This document shows positions 5,323-63,418 of a DNA stretch of 64,000 nucleotides, in pieces. Position numbers and translations under genes: made by a program. Positions within the stretch are counted from its first letter, which is position 1; every line of letters starts with the position of its first letter. Under the pieces are notes generated by a model. That model was given only the letters and a program-made list of their open reading frames with translations, was not told the DNA's origin and made no database searches. The stretch is from positions 1 to 64,000 of IMG/VR virus record IMGVR_UViG_3300005056_000001. One strand, given 5' to 3'. This stretch comes from a virus.

Positions 5323-5387
5323 CAAATATAAGGAAACATAAACCAAAAACACAACAAAACCGAAAGCTTAACGTTTTATTAACATTT
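5323..5387 (-). promoter_or_regulatory. Intergenic cassette: TTAACA-type element plus TAnnTTTG box
   Basis: 5368-5387 reads ttaacgttttattaacattt. 5323-5330 caaatata is TATATTTG on the minus strand, upstream of the ATG at 5274. Confidence 0.45.
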
Positions 5388-11045: not shown

Positions 11046-11088
11046 ACAAATCTACAACAAGTTTTACGATTACGCAAGTTTTACGTAA
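11046..11088 (-). promoter_or_regulatory. Promoter repeat, copy 1 (TAGATTTG box plus two CGTAAAACTTG direct repeats)
   Basis: The minus-sense sequence is TTACGTAAAACTTGCGTAATCGTAAAACTTGTTGTAGATTTGT. The box lies at 11047-11054. It is near-identical to 11434-11476. Confidence 0.5.
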
Positions 11089-11098
11089 GATTGATGTT

Positions 11099-11392
11099 TT
11101 AATAATCGGAATATGGAATATCGAAAGACGATGCTAACACGTTAGGTGTAAAGTAAGGGCTTTGTTTTGTTGCCTCAATTACTCTAGTTCGTGTTAGAGT
11201 CACCTTTCCTTTTACAACCTTCATGGATTCAATTTCTTCAGCATCGTAAGTCGCCAATGATTCCATCATAACCCCGTTTTCGGTAACCTCAAGAACGGTT
11301 TCGATTATCTTCTTGTCGGCAAAAATACACCAATAAGAAAGTATTGTACCTTTTATTGCCTCAATTGTCGTGTTGCCTACTTTGGTTTCCAT
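11099..11392 (-). CDS. Hypothetical protein
   Basis: ATG at 11392 (METKVGNTTIEAIKG...). The track start at 11437 is TTG and lies inside the promoter repeat. Confidence 0.5.
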   Translation of the reverse strand: METKVGNTTIEAIKGTILSYWCIFADKKIIETVLEVTENGVMMESLATYDAEEIESMKVVKGKVTLTRTRVIEATKQSPYFTPNVLASSFDIPYSDY

Positions 11393-11433: not shown

Positions 11434-11476
11434 ACAAATCTACAACAAGTTTTTTAATTACGCAAGTTTTACGTAA
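11434..11476 (-). promoter_or_regulatory. Promoter repeat, copy 2
   Basis: Same 43-bp element as 11046-11088, differing only in a 3-nt spacer. TAGATTTG box at 11435-11442. Confidence 0.5.
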
Positions 11477-11521
11477 TTTATATTTGTTTTATTTAAAACT
11501 TTCTTCAAAAACAACAAAAAT

Positions 11522-30501: not shown

Positions 30502-30567
30502 CTAATATACAACAGTTTTTTGAATACACAAGCACATCGGACTATATTAACATTATTTTAACACTTT
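30502..30567 (-). promoter_or_regulatory. Intergenic cassette: TTAACA element plus -7-like box
   Basis: 30545-30567 reads tattaacattattttaacacttt. 30502-30509 ctaatata is TATATTAG on the minus strand. The ~35 bp around the box also match cassette 31983-32046. Confidence 0.45.
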
Positions 30568-31182
30568 CTATTTTTGGCTGTCACGGCGTGTTTTTACTGT
30601 AGGCTTAAACATACCCGAGAATATTAAACCACCTGCAAGATCCAACATGAGATCATCAATCTCGCCACCATGAAAATCTTTTAGCCAATCAAAAACATTG
30701 GATACTGTGTGAATTTGGGTTGGAGTGTATTCCTTGGTGATAAAATCAAGTTTTGGAAGATGCTTTTTGTCTGCAATTAATACAGAAAGACTCATGGAGC
30801 CGTCAATGATAAATTTCATGTGCTCACCTGTCTTGTATGCGAAGTAGCCTTGTAATACAGGTTTATTGTCATAATTGGCAATATCTGTTGTGTCTTCGCC
30901 CTTGATTAGTTTTAATTTACCTTTTGTGTTTGTGATAATTTTTGCGATATTGGTACTATTAACATCCCATAATGTACTGTCAGACATTTTTTGACACCCC
31001 TTAATGTCATACATAACGCCGTCAATATGACATATATCAAACTCTTTCATGCTTGACATTGGATTGTGTGCCACGACAAAGCTATTTTCGATATCCAAAC
31101 CCGAAACCTTGAACATGTTGTTTACTTGCTCAAGAGAAAATCCGAGTGATTTTAGGTATTCGATTGTGGTTAATTTTTTCAT
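30568..31182 (-). CDS. Hypothetical protein (ATG at 31182)
   Basis: The track N-terminus would run through the promoter box. The ATG at 31182 gives MKKLTTIEYLKSLGF... Confidence 0.6.
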   Translation of the reverse strand: MKKLTTIEYLKSLGFSLEQVNNMFKVSGLDIENSFVVAHNPMSSMKEFDICHIDGVMYDIKGCQKMSDSTLWDVNSTNIAKIITNTKGKLKLIKGEDTTDIANYDNKPVLQGYFAYKTGEHMKFIIDGSMSLSVLIADKKHLPKLDFITKEYTPTQIHTVSNVFDWLKDFHGGEIDDLMLDLAGGLIFSGMFKPTVKTRRDSQK

Positions 31183-31220
31183 GTTTCGTTGTGTATTAAT
31201 GATTACTATTGATTGCCTTA

Positions 31221-31285
31221 CAAATATAGGCAAAAATCCGTACCTAAAAGAATAGATACGGATTTTAACATTTCTTTAACACTTT
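31221..31285 (-). promoter_or_regulatory. Intergenic cassette: TTAACA element, hairpin, TAnnTTTG box
   Basis: 31263-31285 reads ttttaacatttctttaacacttt. Hairpin aaaatccgta / tacggatttt at 31233-31266. 31221-31228 caaatata lies within the conserved attgccttacaaatata. Confidence 0.5.
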
Positions 31286-31288
31286 ATA

Positions 31289-31582
31289 TCATAACAGATT
31301 CAACTTACGCTGCAATTCGCACAACACAGCCATTTTCTTCACAATACTAGAATGATCAGGAGGAAAATTTTCTCTGAGTTTATTTACCCGACCAAGCACA
31401 CGATCAAAAATATATGATAGCGCAGCCTTATTATTATCAAAACATTTCATTCCGTTGGACTGTAAATCCCATGAAGACTTATACCCCTTTGGAGTAAACC
31501 TGTCGCAGTTTTCTGAAAGTGTACCAAACACCCTGTTAGAGCTATTTTGTTTTGGTTCTACAAAAAAGTAAAATTTATCCAT
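31289..31582 (-). CDS. Hypothetical protein
   Basis: ORF track. Confidence 0.55.
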   Translation of the reverse strand: MDKFYFFVEPKQNSSNRVFGTLSENCDRFTPKGYKSSWDLQSNGMKCFDNNKAALSYIFDRVLGRVNKLRENFPPDHSSIVKKMAVLCELQRKLNLL

Positions 31583-31606
31583 ATTATTTTATGATGTTTT
31601 TTGGCT

Positions 31607-31933
31607 TTACACGCCATAGTGCTTTATCGTTTCGGGATGCACCGAAACATTTTTAATCTTCAATATATCCACAAGGTGTTCGCTGTCGGGTTCGTCAGAC
31701 AATGGCAAAACAAGTTTCCCGTCCAAAAACTCATACGTACCTTCTTGTGTATCATAAATTCCCTCCGAAAAAATAAGGTCTCTATGTAGAATCTTAAAGA
31801 TTTTTGAATAAGCCCCTTTATACATCCTAGAAACTCCCCTAACCAACTCGTAAGGGTCACCTTTGATTTGTATTAGGAGCTTAAATTTCGGTGCTGCTAC
31901 TAACTCTTGTATTGGTCTTTGTACTCGTTTCAT
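31607..31933 (-). CDS. Hypothetical protein (MKRVQ N-terminus)
   Basis: ORF track. It shares its first 5 codons and about 19 bp (ttgtactcgtttcatgatt) with 32059-32490. Confidence 0.55.
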   Translation of the reverse strand: MKRVQRPIQELVAAPKFKLLIQIKGDPYELVRGVSRMYKGAYSKIFKILHRDLIFSEGIYDTQEGTYEFLDGKLVLPLSDEPDSEHLVDILKIKNVSVHPETIKHYGV

Positions 31934-31982
31934 GATTGGTTTTTTACATGGACTAATCTATATGATCAGTCGTAACAATACT

Positions 31983-32046
31983 CAAATATACAACACTTTT
32001 TGAATATCTAGGCATTTTGCATTATTTTAACATTTCTTTAACAAAA
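31983..32046 (-). promoter_or_regulatory. Intergenic cassette: TTAACA element plus TAnnTTTG box
   Basis: 32025-32046 reads ttttaacatttctttaacaaaa. 31983-31990 caaatata is TATATTTG on the minus strand. Confidence 0.5.
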
Positions 32047-32058
32047 ATTACCCTACAA

Positions 32059-32490
32059 TCATTTCGGACTAGGCAACAACTCGCTCTTCATTGCCTTGAC
32101 ATAATCCCTAGACAGGTTCCGATTGAATTGAGGGGTGTATTCCCTGTGCTCGATGGCATAATTAACAGTATCAATAAGAGACTGTACCACATTGTTATCA
32201 AACATAAATCCATTATCTCTCAAATAGATGTTATCAAAAAGTTCGTCGGTAAAGTCGTGTTTACCATTATTGATTCTGTCATACCGTACCGCCTGACGTT
32301 GTGTTAGAACCGCAAGCATTTGGTATAAATTCTTGGTGCTTTTTTCTTGTGCCTCCTTGTTGTAATTTTTCTTTGGAGACAAGAATGTTCTTATATATAA
32401 AACAACATCCATATAGGACATGTATTTTATAAAGTCAGGAATCTTTGATTCGTTGGTATTCACACTTGCTGTTTTTTGTACTCGTTTCAT
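32059..32490 (-). CDS. Hypothetical protein (MKRVQ N-terminus)
   Basis: ORF track. Confidence 0.55.
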   Translation of the reverse strand: MKRVQKTASVNTNESKIPDFIKYMSYMDVVLYIRTFLSPKKNYNKEAQEKSTKNLYQMLAVLTQRQAVRYDRINNGKHDFTDELFDNIYLRDNGFMFDNNVVQSLIDTVNYAIEHREYTPQFNRNLSRDYVKAMKSELLPSPK

Positions 32491-32522
32491 GATTATTTTT
32501 TAAGATATGTACAGATTAAAAC

Positions 32523-33158
32523 CTAAATAAATATTCTAAAGTTGGTCTGAATGTGATTATTAATAACCTGCTTGATGTCGCTATACTGCTTGGTCAAGTC
32601 TTGGATACTAGCCCATCCTTTGATTTCCCCCGCAGGAACTTTTCGGATAACCTCCAAAAAACCGTGGAGCATGGCATCCGTGTCCAACATAAGAAATTTT
32701 GAAAGTGGATAGGACAATTTTCCTGTTTTGTATCCAATAAATATAGGACAACTATCCGAAACCTCGGCAGTTTCCTTGTAGTCAAAGCAAAAAGACAAGG
32801 AATCATATTCTCTTAGCTTAGTATATAGGTCTTTGTATTGAGCCAACGACAGATAATCTAGTCTGTCAAACGTCCGAACACTTTGATTGGTGTCATTGAG
32901 CATTCGGAACGCCGTAAGCAACACATAGGTATCGTTTTCGTCCTTACAGACATAGATGTCGGTTCCTTTATTAATACCAACAGGATTTGTTGGTGTCAGA
33001 TACATAACCCTGTCGGGTTGGTATCCGTGGCCCGCACATGTTTTTTCTATTCTGTCGGATAGTCCCTTACCAACCTGTCTGAGCTCAATCCCGTTAGGAT
33101 TCGTGATTTTGCGTTCGCACATCATATCACGTGCATGTTTTGTTATAAAAAATTCCAT
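32523..33158 (-). CDS. Hypothetical protein with DUF4258-like (RelE-fold toxin-like) N-terminal region
   Basis: MEFFITKHARDMMCERKIT...YVLLTAFRM resembles the DUF4258 pattern (..HA.eRm.eRgI ... vvTvy). This is a weak call made by eye. Confidence 0.55.
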   Translation of the reverse strand: MEFFITKHARDMMCERKITNPNGIELRQVGKGLSDRIEKTCAGHGYQPDRVMYLTPTNPVGINKGTDIYVCKDENDTYVLLTAFRMLNDTNQSVRTFDRLDYLSLAQYKDLYTKLREYDSLSFCFDYKETAEVSDSCPIFIGYKTGKLSYPLSKFLMLDTDAMLHGFLEVIRKVPAGEIKGWASIQDLTKQYSDIKQVINNHIQTNFRIFI

Positions 33159-33229
33159 TTTAATTGATTATTGCTCCATCGAGCGATTGTTTAATTCCTG
33201 ACATTTATGTCGTCAGGATCATTGCCTTA

Positions 33230-33295
33230 CAATAATAAGAAGAAAAATCCATACCAACAAGTGTTGGTATGGATTTTAACGTTTAATTAACACTT
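33230..33295 (-). promoter_or_regulatory. Intergenic cassette: TTAACA element, hairpin, -7-like box
   Basis: 33274-33295 reads ttttaacgtttaattaacactt. Perfect hairpin at 33244-33277. 33230-33237 caataata is TATTATTG, within attgccttacaataata. Confidence 0.45.
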
Positions 33296-42758: not shown

Positions 42759-43625
42759 ATGAACAATTCTGTTAAAAATAGCAATGGTACTATCCCACTA
42801 AAGGAACAAATAGCTTCCATAAGAAAAGTACTTACACAAGAAAATGTAAGACAGTCATTGGCGTTGGGCAAGCGACACGAAAACAAAGACCTGACCTCTG
42901 ATTTGTATACCTATGCCACATTCAGACTAGACAAATGGAAACCGACGGTCATCGACGGGAACCTAGAAGATACAGAGGTTATCATTAAGTTTTGGACAAA
43001 ACTCTTGTCTGATGGCGTAAAAAAAATACTAAGGCTCCAAACCTACCTGCCAACACTCCAAAAAATTGCGCTTGAAAACTCTCAACGTGCGGCCAAGACA
43101 TATATCATAAGATATAGAGTGCGTGACCTGACCTCTGATTTGTACCTATTGGCAATGAGCAGGCTCGGACGTAATTGGTTCCCGCCACCAACAGATTTGG
43201 AGGGTATCTCAAAGGCTTGGGGTGCATACCTAATATCATCATTCAGACATGTTATCGACACCGAACTCAAGGACGATGTCATAAAAAAATGTTCCAAGAA
43301 CGGAGAAACGTTTACTCTCATAAAACAATTCGAGGACGGATTTCCTGATTGGTTCGAGGGTTCAAGTCAAAAAAGAAATACCAAGGGGTTTAACGACATT
43401 TTGGATATCCTCAAAAAAGAGCTGACCACCATAGAATATGGTGTGTTACTAATGAGGAGCAAGATATTCCTGAAGCAAATGACTTTTGACAGCATTGCCG
43501 AATGGTTCAACAACAACCCTGCATTTTGGCATCTTGACATGACAAAGAGTAAGGTACACTCTTGCTTTAAAAAGGCCCAAATAAAGGCCCAAAAAGTACT
43601 AACAGAAGAAGGTTGCACACTTTAA
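42759..43625 (+). CDS. Sigma-70-family (ECF-like) factor, paralogue 1
   Basis: The region-2-like segment is DLTSDLYLLAMSRLGRNWF...AWGAYLISSFRHVIDTELK. The region-4-like segment is LTTIEYGVLLMRSKIFLKQMTFDSIAEWF...KVHSCFKKAQIKAQKVL. An extra N-terminal DLTSDLY copy has 20 bp identical at 42891 and 43133. Confidence 0.55.
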   Translation: MNNSVKNSNGTIPLKEQIASIRKVLTQENVRQSLALGKRHENKDLTSDLYTYATFRLDKWKPTVIDGNLEDTEVIIKFWTKLLSDGVKKILRLQTYLPTLQKIALENSQRAAKTYIIRYRVRDLTSDLYLLAMSRLGRNWFPPPTDLEGISKAWGAYLISSFRHVIDTELKDDVIKKCSKNGETFTLIKQFEDGFPDWFEGSSQKRNTKGFNDILDILKKELTTIEYGVLLMRSKIFLKQMTFDSIAEWFNNNPAFWHLDMTKSKVHSCFKKAQIKAQKVLTEEGCTL

Positions 43626-43634
43626 ACTAAGACA

Positions 43635-44429
43635 ATGGTTATAGAACAAATAGACATGTCCGAGGTAAAGGACATGTTAAATTCTCGGGTCATCAAGCAC
43701 ACGACAGCCCTGACTAAATCCTGTGGTGACATGTTTGGCACAAAGTTATATGAGATAGCCAACAACGAGGCACAAGAATGGATAGAACAGCACAAAAATT
43801 TATCACCAAGCGATTTGTATGTGTTGTGGGAAAAAAGACTTTCGTGTCATTCTGACAAAATTTCTAGCGTACACAAAGTATTTCCTGTTCTAAAAGAAAT
43901 AGCGATCGAGATGTGTACCTATTATGGCAACCACTATAATATAAATTATAATTATGGCGACCTAACAAGCGAATTATACATCTTGGCAATGAGCAGACTT
44001 GCCCGAAAATGGTTTCTGCCACAGGACAACATCGAGGGTATAAAGAAGGCATGGCGGGCCTACCTAAGAGATTCGTTTCGTTCGGTTCTCAAAACGGAGA
44101 GTAAAAGTGGTGTTATACCCACACACATGAGAAATGGCGAGTACTTTAGTCCAATGAAGGATTTTTCGGACGGGCTGCCTGATTGGATTTCTTTCGAGAA
44201 CCCTTCATCGGATAACGGGTACATTAACGATATGTTACAATTATTCAAGAATGTGCTGAGTCCCAATGAGTACACAATTTTAATAATGAGAACAGGAATA
44301 TATTTCCCGATAATGAAATACCAACACATTAGCGATTGTTTGTCGGAAATCGACAACAAGGAGTACACAAAAGGATACATCCATTATGTTTATAAAACAG
44401 CCTGTAAAAAATGTGTTAAATATTTATAA
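43635..44429 (+). CDS. Sigma-70-family (ECF-like) factor, paralogue 2
   Basis: DLTSELYILAMSRLARKWF...AWRAYLRDSFRSVLKTESK and LSPNEYTILIMRTGIYFPIMKYQHISDCL...YIHYVYKTACKKC. Confidence 0.55.
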   Translation: MVIEQIDMSEVKDMLNSRVIKHTTALTKSCGDMFGTKLYEIANNEAQEWIEQHKNLSPSDLYVLWEKRLSCHSDKISSVHKVFPVLKEIAIEMCTYYGNHYNINYNYGDLTSELYILAMSRLARKWFLPQDNIEGIKKAWRAYLRDSFRSVLKTESKSGVIPTHMRNGEYFSPMKDFSDGLPDWISFENPSSDNGYINDMLQLFKNVLSPNEYTILIMRTGIYFPIMKYQHISDCLSEIDNKEYTKGYIHYVYKTACKKCVKYL

Positions 44430-50807: not shown

Positions 50808-50885
50808 TTTAGTATCGTGTATGTATTGTGCTTGGTCATGATTTGTATTTTTAAATAGGTCTGTGTCGTATCTGTTATAAACTAG

Positions 50886-50972
50886 TAGAAGAAGTGGGAG
50901 TCGAACCCACACGAGTCGTTAGCTCCGAACGGTTTTCAAAACCGTGGCCACCGCCCATTGGCTTGCTCTTCC
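50886..50972 (-). tRNA. tRNA-Ser(UGA): tRNA-Ser (anticodon UGA), class II, 87 nt
   Basis: Hand fold. Acceptor GGAAGAG/TTCTTCT. Anticodon arm ACGGT-TTTGAAA-ACCGT. Long variable arm. T-arm GTGGG-TTCGACT-CCCAC. No encoded CCA. Confidence 0.75.
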
Positions 50973-51283
50973 TAATCTACAATACAACAACAAATTTCTT
51001 CAACTAATTGGGTGTCGTTGACAACATATGCGTTTCTTGATGGTAAAAATAAGAATGCCTTTGAATTGTTGACCCGTTCGATAAAGTCTGTTGTTATTAA
51101 ACCGTCTCTTACAGAAAAAATTTCTAGACTTTTCATTACACTTTCGGCAACAGCACTCACGGTTTCGTGTTTTTCAACAACTCTATTTTCGGAATCGCTC
51201 CAAAATACATGGGGACAGGAAACCTCAATAATCAATTCTTCCTTAATTCCATATTTTCCGACCAAATCATTCTTAGTAATCAT
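50972..51283 (-). CDS. Hypothetical protein embedded in the tRNA block
   Basis: ORF track. Its stop abuts the 5' end of tRNA-Ser. Confidence 0.5.
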   Translation of the reverse strand: MITKNDLVGKYGIKEELIIEVSCPHVFWSDSENRVVEKHETVSAVAESVMKSLEIFSVRDGLITTDFIERVNNSKAFLFLPSRNAYVVNDTQLVEEICCCIVD

Positions 51284-51354
51284 ATTGTATTTTGTTTTGT
51301 TTTGTTTTGTTAATAATCACATAACGCAATTATACAATATTTATTCAAAACTTG

Positions 51355-51437
51355 TGGGGGTAGAAGGACTCGAACCTACTCAGTCATAGACACTAGATTT
51401 ACAGTCTAGCACGGCTCTCCAACTCCGTCGCACTCCC
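51355..51437 (-). tRNA. tRNA-Tyr(GUA): tRNA-Tyr (anticodon GUA), class II, 83 nt
   Basis: Hand fold. Acceptor GGGAGTG/TACCCCC with an A4-C69 mismatch. D-arm ACGG-AGTTGGAGAG-CCGT. Anticodon arm CTAGA-CTGTAAA-TCTAG. T-arm GTAGG-TTCGAGT-CCTTC with U50-U64. Confidence 0.75.
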
Positions 51438-51545
51438 ATATTAACATGGTATATTTTTTCGATTATGACACTTTGTTTGGTTAAGCTATCATGGAAACTT
51501 TCCACGGAAGGGCTTCCACCTTCTTGTCTTCATAAAAGTTTCTTG

Positions 51546-51620
51546 GGCACATGACGGGATTCGAACCCGTGACCCTCGGTACCACAAACCGATGCTCTAA
51601 CCGTCTGAGCTACACGAACC
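51546..51620 (-). tRNA. tRNA-His(GUG): tRNA-His (anticodon GUG) with encoded G-1, 75 nt
   Basis: Hand fold. G-1 pairs with C73. D-arm GCTC-AGACGGTTA-GAGC. Anticodon arm TCGGT-TTGTGGT-ACCGA. T-arm ACGGG-TTCGAAT-CCCGT. Confidence 0.8.
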
Positions 51621-51631
51621 ATATATTTTAG

Positions 51632-51704
51632 TGGAGCAGGAGGGACTTGAACCCACATCCTTCGCATTGCAAATGCGATGCTCAGCCAATTGAGCTACTG
51701 TCCC
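51632..51704 (-). tRNA. tRNA-Ala(UGC): tRNA-Ala (anticodon UGC), 73 nt
   Basis: Hand fold. The G3-U70 identity pair is present. A4-C69 mismatch. Anticodon arm TCGCA-TTTGCAA-TGCGA. T-arm GTGGG-TTCAAGT-CCCTC with U50-U64. Confidence 0.8.
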
Positions 51705-52238: not shown

Positions 52239-52718
52239 ATGACAACACAATTAATAAACCATCTTTCAAGCGAGTCTGAGCGTGTCGGTGCCTTGGATAC
52301 CATTTACTCACAAATGATTGTATCAAAAAGCCTGTCTGCCTATCCAAACTTTTCGGATTGGCTTTATAAAAAGGTTGGCCTTGGTATAGTCATGAACCAA
52401 AGGAGTATTGTGCTAAAATACATAAACAAAAGGCTTGTGGGCTTTGTCATACTAAAACATCACAAAGAGCATAAATTATGCACCTTTTTTATACTCGACA
52501 ACTATCGTAAGCAAGGAATTGGTCATAAAATGATGACGGAATCCATGGCATTTTTGAATACATTCGGGAATGTGCCTATTACGATAACAATGTCCGTGTT
52601 TGTTGTTTCGGATTTTAACAAAATTCTTACGAATCACGGTTTTGTCTTTGATTATGTCGTTCAATCCGAATACACAAAGGATGTTCCTGAGTACCACCAC
52701 ATCAGGCCCTTGTCCTAA
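52239..52718 (+). CDS. GNAT-family N-acetyltransferase
   Basis: VGFVILKHHKEHKLCTFFILDNYRKQGIGHKMMTESMAFL matches GNAT beta4 and motif A (R/Q-x-x-G-x-G/A). Confidence 0.65.
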   Translation: MTTQLINHLSSESERVGALDTIYSQMIVSKSLSAYPNFSDWLYKKVGLGIVMNQRSIVLKYINKRLVGFVILKHHKEHKLCTFFILDNYRKQGIGHKMMTESMAFLNTFGNVPITITMSVFVVSDFNKILTNHGFVFDYVVQSEYTKDVPEYHHIRPLS

Positions 52719-53122
52719 TCCCTTTTGAATGCACTTTTTCTCATCTTGAATCTATTGCATAACTTCTCAATAACACCGTCGGACAATTCACGGTCGCCCT
52801 TTAGTATATCCGAAACATGTTCTTCTGAAACATCCAATATTTTTGCCAAATCTTTTTGGTTTATTTTGTGGTCACACATTAGCGAATTAATCATTTCTAA
52901 TGGAGTACATTCGGTTTCGTCAAAACCATTTCTTGTGTCCCATTCATCAATAAACGTTTCCAATTCCTCTATTTTTGAATCATATAACACATCGTTCTTG
53001 TGGACATAGTCCTCTAACAGGTCACAATATCTATTATACATGTCAATATCTATTATTCGTTTCATTGCTAATTGGTTTAATTTTATTGTTTTAATTGGTG
53101 GCTTGTCTACAGTCAGAGACAT
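52715..53122 (-). CDS. XRE-family HTH protein (HigA/VapI-like C-terminal HTH)
   Basis: NQKDLAKILDVSEEHVSDILKGDRELSDGVIEKLCNRF. It converges on the GNAT gene and overlaps it by 4 bp. Confidence 0.6.
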   Translation of the reverse strand: MSLTVDKPPIKTIKLNQLAMKRIIDIDMYNRYCDLLEDYVHKNDVLYDSKIEELETFIDEWDTRNGFDETECTPLEMINSLMCDHKINQKDLAKILDVSEEHVSDILKGDRELSDGVIEKLCNRFKMRKSAFKRD

Positions 53123-54252: not shown

Positions 54253-56388
54253 TTATGCCTGATACAAATTACCGTCAGACCCAAACAAGATCACACCCTC
54301 CAATGTCGGAATTTCTCCGAGCGCAACAGAAGGGATACCCTTCTCACGGCATAAATCTGCCGTGTGGTTGAACAAGCTTTTGTTTGTGACAATAACACCC
54401 TTATAACCGTCAATGTCGGAAGGCGAGGCAAAATCACCGATAAAAATATCTTTTACATCAACTTCCATGGCATCATCAACCGAAAGATTAAGACCCTCGT
54501 GTAAAAGAGGCATGTCTGTGTCGAATGGTTTGATTTCGATGTTACCAACCATGTTTTTATATGCTGCCTGACTAATTTTGCCACACTGATAAAGATCCGT
54601 AAAATAGGCAACCTTGATACGCTTGGTAAGGATGGCAGGCTTTAGTTGGGTGATAATAATATTCCCCTTGTTGTTGACAATAAATTCCACAACACTTGCC
54701 TTTGTTCCAATTTCTCTTGCCTTCATCACCTCCTTGAGGTATGCAATTTGGTCGCCTGTCAGAACATCATAAATGTCACTACCGACAACATTCCCAAGAT
54801 TGTATTCGCTTGCGTCCCCTTGTACACACTCCCCAAATAGTCCTGTCTTGCCTGTAATCGGGTGGTGGTTATAAACAACCCCACCAACTTTAGACTCGAT
54901 ATATTCTTGGATACCAAGCGCAAAACCAAATCCCCATTCCTCGGGAAACGTGTTGTTGTCTTTTCCTTCCTTAATGATAGCCACAATTTCTGTTTTGAGT
55001 TCTTCTAATGTCACAACCCCAATATTTTTTGTTGGCAACTGACCCGATAGCGGCATCATAGGAGAAGTTCGAAGGATAATTTTTTTGCCCTCAAGACTTG
55101 TTACCCCCCTGAATGAGCACTTGGCAGCAAATGTGAAATCGTCAAGTGCCTCGAGTCCTTTTGTATAGATATCCTTGCACATATTCGAATTAAGTACAAC
55201 AAACACAGGAACCTCAGTTTTGCTATTCCCACGGAGATTTTTAAGATTTTGGTATTTTGTGCCATTCCACTTGTCTCCTTTGCCAATCATATTAAATTGA
55301 AAGATATCTTTTATGTTTCTTCCAAGCTCAAACCCTTTATAGCTTTCTGCCGCCAATGCCGCATAGACATCCGCCACTTTTACTTTGTTTTGGGAGCGTG
55401 AATCGACCACAAGTGTTTCCAAACCAAACCGAACATGCCATTCCAAGACGGTGTGTAGTTGTGAGATCGTTTCCATGCCGTGCATATGCCATGTGCCGTT
55501 TCTCATATAGAGGCAGTTATCCTTTTCCCATCCATTGCGCATTACGGCAGGCTCTAGATTATTTAGATGAACCAATATCTCATTTGCATCCAAATAAATT
55601 TTCCCTTCAGGATCCACCATTGCAGAAAAGCTGTGAAAGCCGTATGATTTGTTGTCATAGGAACAACCCGATTGCTGTCTTAATTGCTCGTTGCTCATGT
55701 ATCCCAATACATAGGCAGGAGTATAATCATAGCCATCAGGCATCCAATTGTCATGGATTTGGTTGTGTGGCGTTGTATTGAATGATGTCCCAAACAGCTC
55801 ATTTAGTGCAGCCAATTCGGAAATAAAAGCCTCCATTTTTCTTCTGTAAGAATGTTTAGGGAAAAGCAGTTCCTCCCACTCGTTTTCTTCAATCTTCTTG
55901 AAGTGTTTTGCAAGAACGTCCCTGTCGTATGAGTCGATTGGGGCAGTCTCGTATTCGGAGTCTTCCTTTTTTACAAAGTGTTTCGTAAGCAAATCCTTGT
56001 CATACGAATCAAGTATAGAACACTCCAACTTATTTTTTAACTCGACCAACTTGTCGCCTGTATTGACCATCCATGCAACATCATAGATTTCTTTTACAAG
56101 CTTTTCGGCCACCCATGTTCGGTTAAGCACCAAATGAGTTTCAGAATCACACAAAGAAAGAATCGCCTTCTTTTCTGTTTCGACGTGTGGATGGTCACTG
56201 AAGGTCATAAACCTCCGACCCTCAAGGATGTCAATATAGATAGCATCAGACAAACCATTTTGTGTGGCTTCTCTGAGCATGGATATTGCGCTCTTGACTC
56301 GAAGGTGTGTAAACTCCTCCCTTGCAACATATGTGATACGTTCTAATTCGGCCTTTAGGTCTACTCTTGGTATTGTTATGCTTTCCAT
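54253..56388 (-). CDS. PEP-synthase/PPDK-like phosphotransferase: unknown N-terminal domain, ATP-grasp, phospho-His swivel domain
   Basis: ATP-grasp (PPDK_N-like) blocks are VPVFVVL, IILRTSPMMPLSGQ, GIQEYIESKVGGVVYNHHPITGK, FGECVQGD and VVEFIVNNKGNIIITQLKP. The swivel domain is GVIVTNKSLFNHTADLCREKGIPSVALG (His675 codon at 54364-54366). No PEP/pyruvate TIM-barrel follows. Confidence 0.75.
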   Translation of the reverse strand: MESITIPRVDLKAELERITYVAREEFTHLRVKSAISMLREATQNGLSDAIYIDILEGRRFMTFSDHPHVETEKKAILSLCDSETHLVLNRTWVAEKLVKEIYDVAWMVNTGDKLVELKNKLECSILDSYDKDLLTKHFVKKEDSEYETAPIDSYDRDVLAKHFKKIEENEWEELLFPKHSYRRKMEAFISELAALNELFGTSFNTTPHNQIHDNWMPDGYDYTPAYVLGYMSNEQLRQQSGCSYDNKSYGFHSFSAMVDPEGKIYLDANEILVHLNNLEPAVMRNGWEKDNCLYMRNGTWHMHGMETISQLHTVLEWHVRFGLETLVVDSRSQNKVKVADVYAALAAESYKGFELGRNIKDIFQFNMIGKGDKWNGTKYQNLKNLRGNSKTEVPVFVVLNSNMCKDIYTKGLEALDDFTFAAKCSFRGVTSLEGKKIILRTSPMMPLSGQLPTKNIGVVTLEELKTEIVAIIKEGKDNNTFPEEWGFGFALGIQEYIESKVGGVVYNHHPITGKTGLFGECVQGDASEYNLGNVVGSDIYDVLTGDQIAYLKEVMKAREIGTKASVVEFIVNNKGNIIITQLKPAILTKRIKVAYFTDLYQCGKISQAAYKNMVGNIEIKPFDTDMPLLHEGLNLSVDDAMEVDVKDIFIGDFASPSDIDGYKGVIVTNKSLFNHTADLCREKGIPSVALGEIPTLEGVILFGSDGNLYQA

Positions 56389-56431: not shown

Positions 56432-56487
56432 CAAAAATATATTGTTATCAAAATGTATTTGTTGGTTTTAACATTTCTTTAACACTT
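56432..56487 (-). promoter_or_regulatory. Intergenic cassette: TTAACA element plus TAnnTTTG box
   Basis: 56466-56487 reads ttttaacatttctttaacactt. 56432-56439 caaaaata is TATTTTTG on the minus strand, upstream of the ATG at 56388. Confidence 0.5.
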
Positions 56488-57445: not shown

Positions 57446-58105
57446 TTATAAAATATCAGCCTTCTTTGCGCCTTGAGCAAATTCTTTGCAATACATCAAA
57501 TCACTGTTAAGAATCCATTTCTTGTCACTCCCATGATAAAACATGGTTCGGTCACCCTCGACAGAGATTATGTCATTCACAGGAATAGCCACCACACATG
57601 TCCCATCGTTATAATAACGATGTGTTTTTGGTGTTCTCCTCCAACACATTTCATAATACTTGCTAGTAAAGGAATAAAACCTTTCGTTGTGAAACATTGC
57701 CTTAAATTCGATGTAGATTTCTTCGCCTGTCTCGGCACAAAAAATAGGAAATGTGTCGTAGTTAACAAAAAATCTTGGAACATCCTCCACAGCCTTTTGG
57801 TTGTCAAAATCAATCACATCCTTGTTCATGGGAGAGATAGAGTTCATGACATATCTAAAATCAACAAGATCATCTTTCATTGAGGACAAGGCATTGCTAA
57901 TTGTTGAGTCCTCAAGAAATGTGGTTGGCGTCTCACACAGCTCCTTAAATGTCGGGCTTTGCTTGCACATGGCATCCACACACATCTCCAAAAATTTAAA
58001 ATTTCCTTGCAACTGAATGTTGTTCAAGATATGCGACAGTTCGCCACATGTTGTCTTGTCTAATATATGTCTTGTTAGCTGCTTTTTTATTTTAGTATGT
58101 TCCAT
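57446..58105 (-). CDS. Hypothetical protein
   Basis: ORF track. Confidence 0.6.
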   Translation of the reverse strand: MEHTKIKKQLTRHILDKTTCGELSHILNNIQLQGNFKFLEMCVDAMCKQSPTFKELCETPTTFLEDSTISNALSSMKDDLVDFRYVMNSISPMNKDVIDFDNQKAVEDVPRFFVNYDTFPIFCAETGEEIYIEFKAMFHNERFYSFTSKYYEMCWRRTPKTHRYYNDGTCVVAIPVNDIISVEGDRTMFYHGSDKKWILNSDLMYCKEFAQGAKKADIL

Positions 58106-58210
58106 TGCTCTAGATTAAGATATTTTGTAATTCTTTCAAGACCCCAATATATAAAAAATTCCCCAAACAAAAAAGTCTGCACCAATAAAGATACAGACTT
58201 TAACGTTTTG

Positions 58211-58645
58211 TTAATACTTACAACCACCACGCTGCATACCACGCTGCATACCATGTTCTTCGACACAACCAATCACAAAATGACCGATTTGAATGTGAGT
58301 TCCTTCGTCAGAACAAACAAAGGACTTGTCGAACTTAACAATTTGTCCAAAGAATTTTTCTTTGTTTTTCATGTTTTTGTTAATCTCTTCAACACTTGTC
58401 TCCTTGTCTACCAATAACATACCAACAGGAATACACCCAATAGTAACCGAATCAATCGGATAAGTATTTCCGTAATTGTCTGATTGTGTCAAGTCTTGCG
58501 ACAGGTAGGCCGCAAAAAAAGGAATGTCATTAAATACTTGATTGTCTTCTGATTTGTCTTTTGCATCCAAAAATTTGTCCCATGATTTGTTAAATACATA
58601 ACAAGGGTCTCCTATATAATATAATCCTGCTTTCAGTATTGTCAT
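58211..58645 (-). CDS. Hypothetical protein
   Basis: ORF track. The C-terminal GMQRGMQRGG comes from a 12-bp tandem repeat at 58227-58250. Confidence 0.55.
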   Translation of the reverse strand: MTILKAGLYYIGDPCYVFNKSWDKFLDAKDKSEDNQVFNDIPFFAAYLSQDLTQSDNYGNTYPIDSVTIGCIPVGMLLVDKETSVEEINKNMKNKEKFFGQIVKFDKSFVCSDEGTHIQIGHFVIGCVEEHGMQRGMQRGGCKY

Positions 58646-58705: not shown

Positions 58706-58771
58706 CAATATTACAACAAAAAATCCGTACCCACAAGCGTGGGCACGGATTTTAACATTTAATTAACAATT
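58706..58771 (-). promoter_or_regulatory. Intergenic cassette: TTAACA element, hairpin, -7-like box
   Basis: 58750-58771 reads ttttaacatttaattaacaatt. Hairpin at 58718-58753, where one mismatch is a G-U pair in the minus sense. 58706-58713 caatatta is TAATATTG. Confidence 0.45.
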
Positions 58772-60361: not shown

Positions 60362-63328
60362 TTACACAATCTTAGAAGTTCCCCATGACAGACTTTTCTT
60401 GCCGTCATTGTCCTCGGTGCGCTCCATTAGATTATCAAACAAAGTCGAATCAATTCCAAATTCTTCAAATACTCCATCAAGCGTGGCGGTGTCTTTGGTT
60501 TTGATAAACTCGTTAATTTTTTCTTTGTCCATTAGCAGGGCCAAGATGTTTTTTTCTATTGTTCCGTCATACGACACGAAATGTACATCAGTATGATTCA
60601 CAGAATTATAACGAATGAAACGGAAATAAAACTGTTCCATTCTTGGGATATTCCATTGAAGACCCTCGATGATTACCTTGTCACAAGTCGGAATGTTAAC
60701 CGATGACTTCAGGGATTGTTGTGTGCATACCAAAATACCATTCTCTGTGGCCTCGAATCTGTCTAGGATTGGTTGACGCTTGTCGATACTTACGTCCCCT
60801 GTAATCACAAAAATTTGACGCTCAGGAAAAAGAATTGTAAGGTTTTCGACATATAGTTTTATGGTTTCTTTTCGGGTACATCCAATTGCAACTTTTTCGT
60901 CAAATTTTTGACACAATTGGGCAATTTTATAAAACTTGGTTGGTAGGTCTCCCTTGTAATCCGAAAATGAATTCGGGGTACTACATGCCTTGTACAACAA
61001 TTGCATTTGGCGAACTATTCTGAGGGCAGCATCTTTTCGTGTGCTGCCTGTTGACCCATAAAACTCGCTGATTATGCGGTGGAACTCACGGATTATCACG
61101 CCATAAATTCTTGCCTCATCGGCTGTTTGGTTCACATACTCTGTGTGTACCGTGAATTTTTCTCCTGCAATTTCTTTGAATTTTCTTGTTATGATTGATT
61201 GGTCAATGATCGAGACCAATTTGTCTTGATTGAAAACGTCTTGGTTTTGTTTCTTGATTCCAAAAACGGTTGCCTTGGAAGGATTAAAACAAGACTTGAA
61301 TTGTCCGAATCCCAAACGTGCCTTGTATGGCTGCATGTGGTTTTTATTGTCACGACTTTTTATGTCGCCTTCCTTGTTTTGGACATAGGTCATTTTACAG
61401 GAGTCCAACATATTCACAGAATTATTGAACAACAATTCTAATTGTGGGTATAGTTCTGTGATATTGTTTCTTGTGGTGGTTCCTGTTGCCAAAAACTTTC
61501 TTTTAACACGTCTAAAAATGTCACGGCTTGCACGAGATCGTTTTGATGTGTTTGAACAAATTTCGTCGGACTCATCCATGACAAGACAAACCTTATTACT
61601 CAACGACTTAACCAATTTTTGTAGCTCTTTTTTGAACTTGATAAGCATATTAAAACTAATCAACACAATAGAACCACTGTTTAAAATATGGCTTCTTTTG
61701 GTTATTATGGTATACTCCTCGCCCTGTGTATTCAAAAACTCTGTCCATGTTGTTTTAATGGCCAAAGAAGGAGCCACTATAAATGTTTTTTTGACTTTTG
61801 GTTGGTTGTATTTTGCAAATGCATAACACCCGCCCGTTTTTCCGCAACCCTGTTGCCAATTACAGATTGAATATTGTTTTTGTAAAAAAAGGTTTAGGTC
61901 ATGCGCCTGTATATTATTAAACTTACAGGTCACGGTTTTTTTGTTGCCTAATTTGTCGGTGTCTTCTCTCAGAAAACTAAAATCTTTTAACCATGCAGCA
62001 ATAGACTCACTTTGGGTCATTTCTGAAAATGGTGTTGTTATCTTTTTATTCTCTGCGATCTTGCGTGTGATCAGTTTATTGTATGGGTGGTCAAGATCTT
62101 TTGTCGGTATAAGGTTGGTACCCAACACCAAGTCGCTAAGGGAATACTTTTTCTTTTGTGCCTTTGGGGCCTTACCCTTGACAACAAAGCCATGACGGTG
62201 TTTTACGACTCTTAGAGTCTTGTTGGCCGCCTTTTTATTTTGGGTCTTAACAATTCTTTTTAGATAGGCAAGAACCTTGTTTTCGGTAAGCATTTTCTTG
62301 CTCCATTCGCTGTCCTCCATGCCCATTGGCTTGGTCTGTGTATTGAATTTTTCGATATACGAAATCGCACTGTCCAACTTGGCAGATATTTCGCCGTGTT
62401 GCTTGATTTCAAAAAGGTATTTCTTGACTCTAAACCCAAAATCATCATTTGTTAGCGACTTGTTAAACTCAAGACGTAACGCCGATTTAATATTGTGGCG
62501 CAATGCCAATTTCTTGGAAATTTCTGATTTTGTGCTAACACTATTCGTGTAAGGAACATCCTTGAGATGTTCGGACTTTTTTTGAAGATAGATAACCTTG
62601 GTATTATAATTCTTTACCCCCAAGGCACCAAAGGCATCATTTGTCAGTTGATATTGACCCACGAAATTAAACATCCTGTCTAGGTCATTTATTTGAGACT
62701 TATAATACATCTCGTCGCCAAGGTACGAAGTCGGAACAATGGCCGCCACAACCCCGCCATTTTTTAACATCTTGGCACACATTTTAAAAAACAGTGCATG
62801 GCTTCTGACATGCGTGTTTGTTTCGGTGTCGAACCACTCAAGACTAAAAGGAGGATTGCCCAACACGACATCAAACTTATTTTCGATGGTATTGTTTGGC
62901 AGACTTGCCTCGGTAAAGTCTGCATCAGGATACAGACGGTTGGCAACCTGCACAGACTTTGGACAAATATCCATCCCATGAAAAACGGATTCGTTAGGCA
63001 CAAAATTACAAAACACACCCATTCCACATGTCGGATCCACAATCAATTCGTTTGAGGCAAGACCCACGATATCCACAATATCACTTGCAATCATGGCAGG
63101 TGTATAAAATTGGCCATTCTCGACCTCCTTTTTTGCTGCCGAGTACTCATAGTAATTACGATAGTCTTTAAATTCTAAACCATGCAACCCTCCATCACCC
63201 GTATAGGCATTAAAAATTTGCTCATTGCTAATGGCAGCGGAATCCAATTGGATTGCCATTAAGATCTTACTATTGACCGTTTTGCGGTGGTCTTGTGGTA
63301 TTGTATCGGTAAGGATATTGTATTTCAT
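60362..63328 (-). CDS. N6-adenine DNA methyltransferase fused to an SNF2-family helicase (988 aa)
   Basis: The MTase motifs are GQFYTP, VDPTCGMGVF (motif I) and VLGNPPFS (motif IV, codons around 62846-62857). The helicase motifs are QQGCGKTG (Walker A), LVMDESDE (DExD), LATGTTTRNN (SNF2 motif III) and a C-terminal lobe ILVCTQQSLKSSVNI. Confidence 0.85.
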   Translation of the reverse strand: MKYNILTDTIPQDHRKTVNSKILMAIQLDSAAISNEQIFNAYTGDGGLHGLEFKDYRNYYEYSAAKKEVENGQFYTPAMIASDIVDIVGLASNELIVDPTCGMGVFCNFVPNESVFHGMDICPKSVQVANRLYPDADFTEASLPNNTIENKFDVVLGNPPFSLEWFDTETNTHVRSHALFFKMCAKMLKNGGVVAAIVPTSYLGDEMYYKSQINDLDRMFNFVGQYQLTNDAFGALGVKNYNTKVIYLQKKSEHLKDVPYTNSVSTKSEISKKLALRHNIKSALRLEFNKSLTNDDFGFRVKKYLFEIKQHGEISAKLDSAISYIEKFNTQTKPMGMEDSEWSKKMLTENKVLAYLKRIVKTQNKKAANKTLRVVKHRHGFVVKGKAPKAQKKKYSLSDLVLGTNLIPTKDLDHPYNKLITRKIAENKKITTPFSEMTQSESIAAWLKDFSFLREDTDKLGNKKTVTCKFNNIQAHDLNLFLQKQYSICNWQQGCGKTGGCYAFAKYNQPKVKKTFIVAPSLAIKTTWTEFLNTQGEEYTIITKRSHILNSGSIVLISFNMLIKFKKELQKLVKSLSNKVCLVMDESDEICSNTSKRSRASRDIFRRVKRKFLATGTTTRNNITELYPQLELLFNNSVNMLDSCKMTYVQNKEGDIKSRDNKNHMQPYKARLGFGQFKSCFNPSKATVFGIKKQNQDVFNQDKLVSIIDQSIITRKFKEIAGEKFTVHTEYVNQTADEARIYGVIIREFHRIISEFYGSTGSTRKDAALRIVRQMQLLYKACSTPNSFSDYKGDLPTKFYKIAQLCQKFDEKVAIGCTRKETIKLYVENLTILFPERQIFVITGDVSIDKRQPILDRFEATENGILVCTQQSLKSSVNIPTCDKVIIEGLQWNIPRMEQFYFRFIRYNSVNHTDVHFVSYDGTIEKNILALLMDKEKINEFIKTKDTATLDGVFEEFGIDSTLFDNLMERTEDNDGKKSLSWGTSKIV

Positions 63329-63396
63329 GCTATCTGTTTGTTTTTATGATAATGCTAAGGTAGTAATTTTTGGATAGGTGCAAGTGTATTTGGTTA

Positions 63397-63418
63397 TTTT
63401 AACAAAATATTAACACTT
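63397..63418 (-). promoter_or_regulatory. TTAACA-N5-TTAACA element upstream of the MTase-helicase gene
   Basis: ttttaacaaaatattaacactt. There is no clean TAnnTTTG box downstream. The closest is TACACTTG at 63381-63388. Confidence 0.4.

Follow-up and report, generated by a model that had tools for sequence, protein, structure and literature searches.

We analysed a stretch of 64,000 nucleotides of viral DNA (IMG/VR virus record IMGVR_UViG_3300005056_000001, positions 1 to 64,000; hereafter the window), in which the minus strand codes for most of the sequence (77 of the 88 crude gene calls) and in which a short intergenic element recurs. The element reads TTAACR-N5-TTAACA on the plus strand, and its coding (minus) strand form is TGTTAA-N5-YGTTAA. 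Scanning the window, we found nine matches on the plus strand, at positions 2708, 5368, 30547, 31265, 32027, 33276, 56468, 58752 and 63399, and none on the other strand, versus a mean of 0.03 and a maximum of 1 in dinucleotide-preserving shuffles. All nine copies lie in gaps between minus-strand open reading frames (ORFs), 4-30 nt past the stop codon of the preceding gene, and with an intergenic fraction of 13.8% the probability of such a placement is approximately 2e-8. Among the 82 GTTAA half-sites on the minus strand, 11 bp is the sole enriched pair spacing (n = 9), and no pair spacing is enriched on the opposite strand. An initial annotation of the window had described nine copies in one orientation, all in intergenic regions upstream of minus-strand genes, with direct half-sites 11 bp apart and with none seen ahead of plus-strand genes, and the window scans bear out this description; neither coding sequence nor shuffled sequence holds the element at a similar frequency. 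A relaxed scan of the window adds one degenerate tenth copy at 58200-58216 on the minus strand, and when the ten regions are aligned, the columns without variation are precisely those of the two GTTAA cores, with flanks and spacers that vary.

Each copy is followed by a core promoter of the Bacteroidota type. A TAnnTTTG-like -7 box starts 36-38 nt after the element in all nine copies, with four strict matches and five that agree at 5 of 6 positions, and the chance of finding a box of at least 5/6 positions inside a 3-nt window at all nine sites is approximately 3e-13. The initial annotation had placed such a box 27-39 bp downstream in eight copies; the box itself is present, but that range proves too loose and the count too low. 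The site at 56468 has an additional strict -7 box at 28 nt. Furthermore, a -33-like TTG is found 15-18 nt after the element in seven of the nine copies, approximately 19 nt ahead of the -7 box. The start codons come 45-80 nt further on, behind A-rich sequence that has no Shine-Dalgarno motif, as is typical of Bacteroidota. In Flavobacterium psychrophilum TAnnTTTG spans -12 to -5 (PMC9723704), which places the element of the window at about -66 to -50. We also considered the element as the -35 box of an extracytoplasmic function (ECF) sigma factor or as a substitute for the -33 box, and rejected both, as there is no conserved sequence 16-17 nt downstream and the distance to the -7 box is unsuitable.

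Going along the minus strand, with the gap being the distance from the element to the -7 box, module 1 has the element TGTTAAAGAAATGTTAA at 2708-2724 and the -7 box TATATTTG at 2663-2670 (gap 37), ahead of a 107-aa ORF starting at 2623. Module 2 has the element TGTTAATAAAACGTTAA at 5368-5384 and the box TATATTTG at 5323-5330 (gap 37; ORF start 5274), and module 3 the element TGTTAAAATAATGTTAA at 30547-30563 and the -7-like TATATTAG at 30502-30509 (gap 37; ORF start 30477). Modules 4 and 5 both carry TGTTAAAGAAATGTTAA, at 31265-31281 and 32027-32043, and TATATTTG, at 31221-31228 and 31983-31990, with a gap of 36 in each case; the ORF of module 5 starts at 31933. The ORF behind module 4 was listed as 30568-31233 with a TTG start, and its true start is most likely the ATG at 31182, because a TTG start would make the ORF overlap this module's -7 box and hairpin. 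In module 6 the element TGTTAATTAAACGTTAA at 33276-33292 is followed by the -7-like TATTATTG at 33230-33237 (gap 38; ORF start 33158). Module 7 has the element TGTTAAAGAAATGTTAA at 56468-56484, the strict box TATTTTTG at 56432-56439 (gap 28) and TACATTTA at gap 38, ahead of a 711-aa ORF starting at 56388. Module 8 combines the element TGTTAATTAAATGTTAA at 58752-58768 with the -7-like TAATATTG at 58706-58713 (gap 38; ORF start 58645), and module 9 the element TGTTAATATTTTGTTAA at 63399-63415 with the -7-like TACCTTAG at 63355-63362 (gap 36), ahead of a 988-aa methylase-helicase gene starting at 63328. Finally, the degenerate tenth copy, TATTAACAAAACGTTAA, has the -7-like TATATTGG at 58144-58151, at a gap of 48 that is one helical turn further, and its ORF starts at 58105.

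In five of these ten modules a strong hairpin with a U-run occupies the stretch from element to -7 box, at 2676-2709 (-12.6 kcal/mol, z-score -4.2) in module 1, 31233-31266 (-18.9 kcal/mol, z-score -7.5) in module 4, 33244-33277 (-20.6 kcal/mol, z-score -7.4) in module 6, 58720-58753 (-24.4 kcal/mol, z-score -6.6) in module 8 and 58172-58201 in the degenerate module, each followed by 5-6 T. The initial annotation had reported terminator hairpins in four copies, which we recover, the degenerate copy at 58200 providing a fifth; across the five, energies range from -12.6 to -24.4 kcal/mol and z-scores from -4.2 to -7.5. All five are stable G+C-containing stem-loops with a direct U-run that come after a stop codon, as in predicted intrinsic terminators, and no structure is predicted between the element and the -7 box in the other five modules. 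Since the hairpin and its U-run fill the space from element to -7 box, the predicted terminator of the upstream gene appears nested in the next gene's promoter. Four of the hairpin modules, module 1 among them, have the -33-like TTG in the loop of the hairpin, and the fifth, at 31265, has no TTG. An Rfam search returned only tRNAs and no structured-RNA family, Flavo-1 included, at the elements.

Certain modules resemble one another beyond the element. Those at 2708, 31265 and 33276 have a common hairpin and the leader GTAAGGCAAT, and those at 30547 and 32027 have a common core-promoter region, which indicates that some of the cassettes are recent duplicates. In the three former cassettes the leader GTAAGGCAAT(C/G)A stands right after the -7 box (minus strand, 2640-2662, 31198-31220 and 33210-33229). 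Four promoters of Bacteroides phage B124-14, described below, likewise have a common leader of their own, and such conserved leaders may be a translation or stability signal.

Most of the genes behind the element are small ORFs that match nothing in Pfam or PHROG. Two genes stand out from these, encoding the 711-aa protein, of unknown function, and the 988-aa protein, an N6-methylase/helicase with a weak and partial match to the DarB-like antirestriction family. Of approximately 45 ORFs annotated with Pfam and PHROG almost none matched, the matches being the methylase-helicase, an RNA ligase, an HslV-like peptidase and a helix-turn-helix (HTH) protein. The element is present at approximately 10 of the approximately 20 intergenic sigma-A-like promoters of the window and absent from about half, and therefore marks a subset of them. 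From the content of small unknown ORFs and the DarB-like methylase-helicase, the genes are probably early or host-takeover genes, and it is plausible that the units bearing the element form a temporal (early-gene) class.

The phage itself is huge and very poorly charted. The window is part of a contig of at least 368,684 bp, and the same region is also found on a 14,785-bp contig from JGI sample 3300029927. At the nucleotide level, 8 kb of the window matched no cultured phage. Relatives that could serve for phylogenetic footprinting were not found in IMG/VR with the helicase, the 711-aa protein matched itself only, and an exact look-up of the helicase returned no record. In Tenacibaculum phage pT24 (43-kb stretch) and the fecal contig MT836551, which are nearest by helicase similarity, there is no promoter-type copy of the element, and the sole pT24 match of the element has no -7 box after it.

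Among phages unrelated to the window, we observe the same arrangement in B124-14, a 47-kb siphovirus. Its genome holds exactly four copies of nGTTAA-N5-TGTTAA on the coding strand, each 37 nt before TAnnTTTG, and the layout nGTTAA-N5-TGTTAA, approximately 16 nt, TTG, approximately 19 nt, TAnnTTTG is common to these four and to the nine window promoters. Element, orientation and the 37-nt distance are the same in both, whereas flanks and leaders are unrelated, and half of the window modules, unlike the B124-14 promoters, embed a predicted terminator between element and -7 box. A widely used promoter named P_BfP1E6 is one that we take to be derived from B124-14. Papers ascribe it to a Bacteroides fragilis phage and report strong, constitutive activity in several uninfected Bacteroides species, and one of them states, citing Whitaker et al. 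2017 (Cell), that it has 'UP elements', which may correspond to these repeats.

Next, we scanned IMG/VR for the exact 17-mer TGTTAAAGAAATGTTAA alone, with no -7 box required, and obtained 119 loci, many of them at promoters of Flavobacteriia phages. Within 0-72 nt of these seeds (120 unique contexts), strict TAnnTTTG follows at 36-39 nt in 32 cases, at 27-30 nt in six, at 47-49 nt in eight and elsewhere in only one. The seeds are parts of arrays of in-phase units, with two units in 92 arrays, three in 30 and four in two. A single group of related phages of approximately 30% GC, whose terminases weakly resemble those of Riemerella and Nonlabens phages, accounts for 89 of the 119 loci, and an in-phase -7 box comes after a seed in just 5 of 27 clusters; the evidence from IMG/VR therefore largely comes from one lineage. 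A short-query BLAST of the triple repeat against cultured phages was dominated by A/T-rich noise.

Beyond phages, the element occurs in bacterial chromosomes. We scanned one genome per species for the 17-mer followed by TAnnTTTG 25-50 nt later and found 71 matches, versus roughly 0.4-10 expected by chance in a back-of-envelope estimate for the 23-base pattern with A/T bias allowed for. Approximately 64 of the 71 lie in Bacteroidota, across Flavobacteriales, Bacteroidales, Sphingobacteriales, Chitinophagales and Cytophagales, and one, with four tandem units, lies in Ignavibacteria; the five matches outside these taxa are approximately at chance level. The gap to the -7 box is 26-27 nt in 12 matches, 37-40 nt in 40 and 47-49 nt in eight, with troughs between. 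Several matches are on megabase chromosomal contigs of isolates, for example in six Winogradskyella and three Pedobacter species. Judging by N-terminal sequences, from which the names were assigned, the host genes behind the element are functionally unrelated, comprising PadR, TetR, MerR and MarR regulators, ABC ATPases, a TonB-type receptor, MutS, a small membrane protein and a conserved secreted-protein family. Host DNA of 515 kb holds five extra copies of the element versus approximately one in shuffles, roughly 1 per 100 kb, and the density in the window, 1 per 7 kb, is approximately 15 times that of host DNA.

At many host loci a palindromic operator also separates the element from the -7 box. 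In Flavobacteriaceae the promoters of PadR-type and small-membrane-protein genes have a common inverted repeat (TAGTACTATG...CATAGTACTA) in this position, and the promoters of TetR-type regulator genes have palindromes of their own, the PadR/TetR operator pattern being read at 17 loci. By its sequence, the host pattern is one of a putatively strong upstream element combined with a predicted repressor operator. Additionally, five loci in metagenome-assembled genomes of Bacteroidales have a run of 6-9 G directly after the element and before the -7 box, as in TGTTAAAGAAATGTTAA-aat-GGGGGGGGG-taaa. Slippage in such a poly-G run could shift the helical phase and thereby produce phase variation, switching the element on or off.

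Taken over genomes and viral seeds, the gaps to the -7 box form classes that are one helical turn apart (26-28, 36-40 and 47-49 nt), and these peaks, with troughs between them, indicate dependence on the face of the helix. Orientation is less constrained, with 54 of the 118 IMG/VR seeds being forward and 32 reverse. Upon examining the reverse layout, we find strict TAnnTTTG 20-21 nt away in 21 of the 32, usually just after a terminator; the order, seen for example at six of the IMG/VR loci, is terminator hairpin, TTAACATTTCTTTAACA, 20-21 nt, TAnnTTTG and ATG. When the centre of a unit is taken as the sixth base of TGTTAAAGAAA, the centres fall near -39, -50 and -61 in both the forward (gap 37) and the reverse (gap 20-21) layouts, and this coincidence indicates that the element depends on position and phase and not on orientation.

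The explanation that we favour, and regard as moderately likely, is that the element is a UP-type upstream module of Bacteroidota sigma-A promoters that is read by host machinery, most likely by the RNA polymerase alpha subunit's C-terminal domain (alpha-CTD). A fixed, phased position that is kept ahead of unrelated host genes across a phylum and in unrelated phages, together with the constitutive activity in uninfected cells that is reported for a phage promoter said to carry 'UP elements', points to reading by conserved host machinery, and a UP-type contact by two alpha-CTDs would be the simplest candidate reader. In this module two TGTTAA(A) units, helically phased with an 11-bp period, would occupy about -66 to -50 and be followed by the -33-like TTG and the -7 box TAnnTTTG, and the reader of the module would belong to the host transcription machinery rather than being a phage protein. 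The alpha-CTDs would dock on one face of the helix and the effect would be stronger recruitment of the host polymerase. The phage would have placed the element before at least 10 small transcription units, which encode mostly small unknown ORFs and the DarB-like methylase-helicase, and in five of the ten the terminator of the upstream gene would be packed into the approximately 37-nt space from element to -7 box, yielding compact, insulated terminator-promoter cassettes. Several features are those expected of UP elements. All nine window copies have a fixed position just upstream of the core promoter, other loci place the element at about -55 to -39 too, and whole-turn shifts are tolerated in the genomes and in the IMG/VR seeds. 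The repeat unit TGTTAAA(G/A)WWW, recurring every 11 bp, fits the general UP-type pattern (PMC12641261), apart from its invariant G, which is atypical.

The element is the same as that of the four B124-14 promoters, and functionally it would be closest to UP elements. The UP element of Escherichia coli rrnB P1 is reportedly read by the RNA polymerase alpha-CTD. Both lie upstream of the -35 or -33 box, both have two subsites approximately 11 bp apart that are A/T-rich with alternating T- and A-tracts, and both depend on the face of the helix while tolerating whole-turn shifts. Unlike rrnB P1, the window element has a discrete core with an invariant G and accompanies a Bacteroidota -33/-7 core, and here the contact by alpha-CTD is presumed.

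A number of points weigh against this explanation. The link between alpha-CTD and the element is one that we infer from sequence. The invariant G and the discrete hexamer are more like a transcription-factor site than like the classical A/T-rich UP elements, and the element is missing from about half of the sigma-A-like promoters of the window. The window units, at about -51 and -62, lie one turn further upstream than the proximal and distal subsites of E. coli (about -42 and -52), with a third unit at about -40 being common in other phages. Host copies are few, which indicates that the element is not a general feature of host promoters, and the IMG/VR loci are dominated by the single group noted above. 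Finally, no strict copy was found in the whole of the Riemerella phage RAP44, in 43 kb of pT24 or in 25 kb of the Bacteroides phage DAC19.

Some of these points would suit a conserved host transcription activator that binds the array and contacts the polymerase from about -50 to -60, with the phages borrowing its sites, and an OmpR/PhoB-type response regulator would be an example. Such regulators bind direct repeats with a period of 10-11 bp, and the consensus of WalR/YycF, a Firmicutes protein, is TGTWAH-N5-TGTWAH. The window element shares this layout, its hexamers being directly repeated every 11 bp across a 5-nt spacer, and, like WalR sites and Pho boxes, it forms tandem arrays upstream of the core promoter. 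A discrete core with a strongly conserved G is what factor sites typically have, helical phasing over several turns also suits class I activators, and the low host copy number resembles that of a regulon. However, the downstream host genes have no common function and form no coherent regulon, the element is spread over five orders and Ignavibacteria, and its orientation to the promoter is not fixed. Occurrence in both orientations, together with an odd unit number in the frequent three-unit arrays (30 of 124), would be unusual for head-to-tail response-regulator dimers, and the activator would need constant activity if the 'UP elements' of P_BfP1E6 were these repeats. No candidate regulator was identified, and we consider such an activator rather unlikely, though a serious contender.

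A different possibility is that there is no specific reader, with phased A- and T-tracts (TGTT/AAAGAAA) making the DNA curved or flexible and thereby helping the polymerase to wrap upstream DNA, or with the copies arising from cassette duplication within the genome. The 11-bp phasing and the orientation independence would suit an effect of DNA shape, and subsets of cassettes are clearly duplicated (2708, 31265 and 33276; 30547 and 32027), with hairpin and 5' untranslated sequence in common. The second version recalls the promoter-early stem-loop (PeSL) cassettes of T4-type phages, which are reportedly repeated modules of a host-type promoter and a stem-loop. The window likewise has short promoter/stem-loop modules between small unknown ORFs in a large phage, with some near-identical copies; unlike PeSL, the order is upstream element, terminator hairpin and -7 box, the promoter is of the Bacteroidota type, and the conserved part reaches host genomes, which a history of cassette duplication does not explain. 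Curvature needs no invariant GTTAA, yet over the nine copies the two cores alone are invariant while flanks and spacers vary. Moreover, the exact 17-mer is kept in distant hosts amid unrelated surroundings, and descent alone is therefore no explanation. We regard the absence of a specific reader as improbable.

The initial annotation had read the element as marking a phage promoter class, probably a temporal one. Its promoter association, at a fixed distance from the -7 box, stands, and among the options that it offered the UP-like one fits best, whereas a phage-specific activator or sigma class does not hold up. Such a class, read by a phage-encoded activator or sigma-associated protein, would suit the marking of a mere subset of promoters (approximately 10 of approximately 20), the approximately 15-fold higher density in the window, the early-looking downstream genes and the protein encoded at 52715-53122, which the annotation had called an HTH protein and which matches HTH_3, but it is very improbable and largely refuted by the host genomes, since the same element and geometry stand before ordinary Bacteroidota chromosomal genes and in B124-14 and other unrelated phages at IMG/VR loci and are thus not confined to this phage and its relatives, the adjoining core promoter is of the host sigma-A type, and the two proteins at 42759-44429 that had been called sigma-like, searched along with their neighbours in Pfam (up to E = 5), PHROGs and PDB sequences, gave no match there and show no detectable sigma similarity. 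In addition, P_BfP1E6, which is said to have 'UP elements', is reportedly active in the absence of phage.

Returning to reading by host machinery, we tentatively propose a wider formulation, which we hold to be possible rather than probable, in which 11-bp-phased TGTTAAA repeats are a largely Bacteroidota-restricted recognition sequence of an uncharacterised initiation step, served by a base-reading alpha-CTD or by a universal constitutive activator and acting in either orientation with centres near -39, -50 and -61. Descriptions of Bacteroidota promoters usually go no further than the -33 and -7 boxes. A genome-wide promoter motif search in Bacteroides thetaiotaomicron covered -50 to +1 only (PMC7366714), and the element could therefore not have been seen there; the F. 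psychrophilum study reports sigma-factor binding motifs only (PMC9723704). A full-text literature search for the sequence strings of the element found no paper, and its phylum-wide consensus, phasing, orientation independence and nested terminators appear to be under-described.

If hosts and phages do share such a phased element, promoters would be easier to predict and strong ones easier to design for gut Bacteroides and flavobacteria, and phages from 47-kb siphoviruses to those with genomes of more than 368 kb would exploit it. The element would also be a sequence signature by which uncultured phages, among them that of the present, poorly annotatable contig, could be assigned to Bacteroidota hosts. 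In this phage at least 10 transcription units would be built for the unmodified host polymerase, with nested predicted terminators that would insulate neighbours. The element poses the question of what contacts upstream promoter DNA in Bacteroidota.

Other features of the window lie apart from the element. Two sigma-A-like promoters (TAGATTTG) on the minus strand, at 11054-11130 and 11442-11520, have in common a palindrome, TTACGTAAAACTTGCGTAA, and an upstream sequence, AAAACTTGTTG. Both promoters are without the TGTTAA element, and they probably form a second, operator-controlled promoter class. Finally, four tRNA genes are clustered on the minus strand at 50885-51704, namely Ser-TGA, Tyr-GTA, His-GTG and Ala-TGC.

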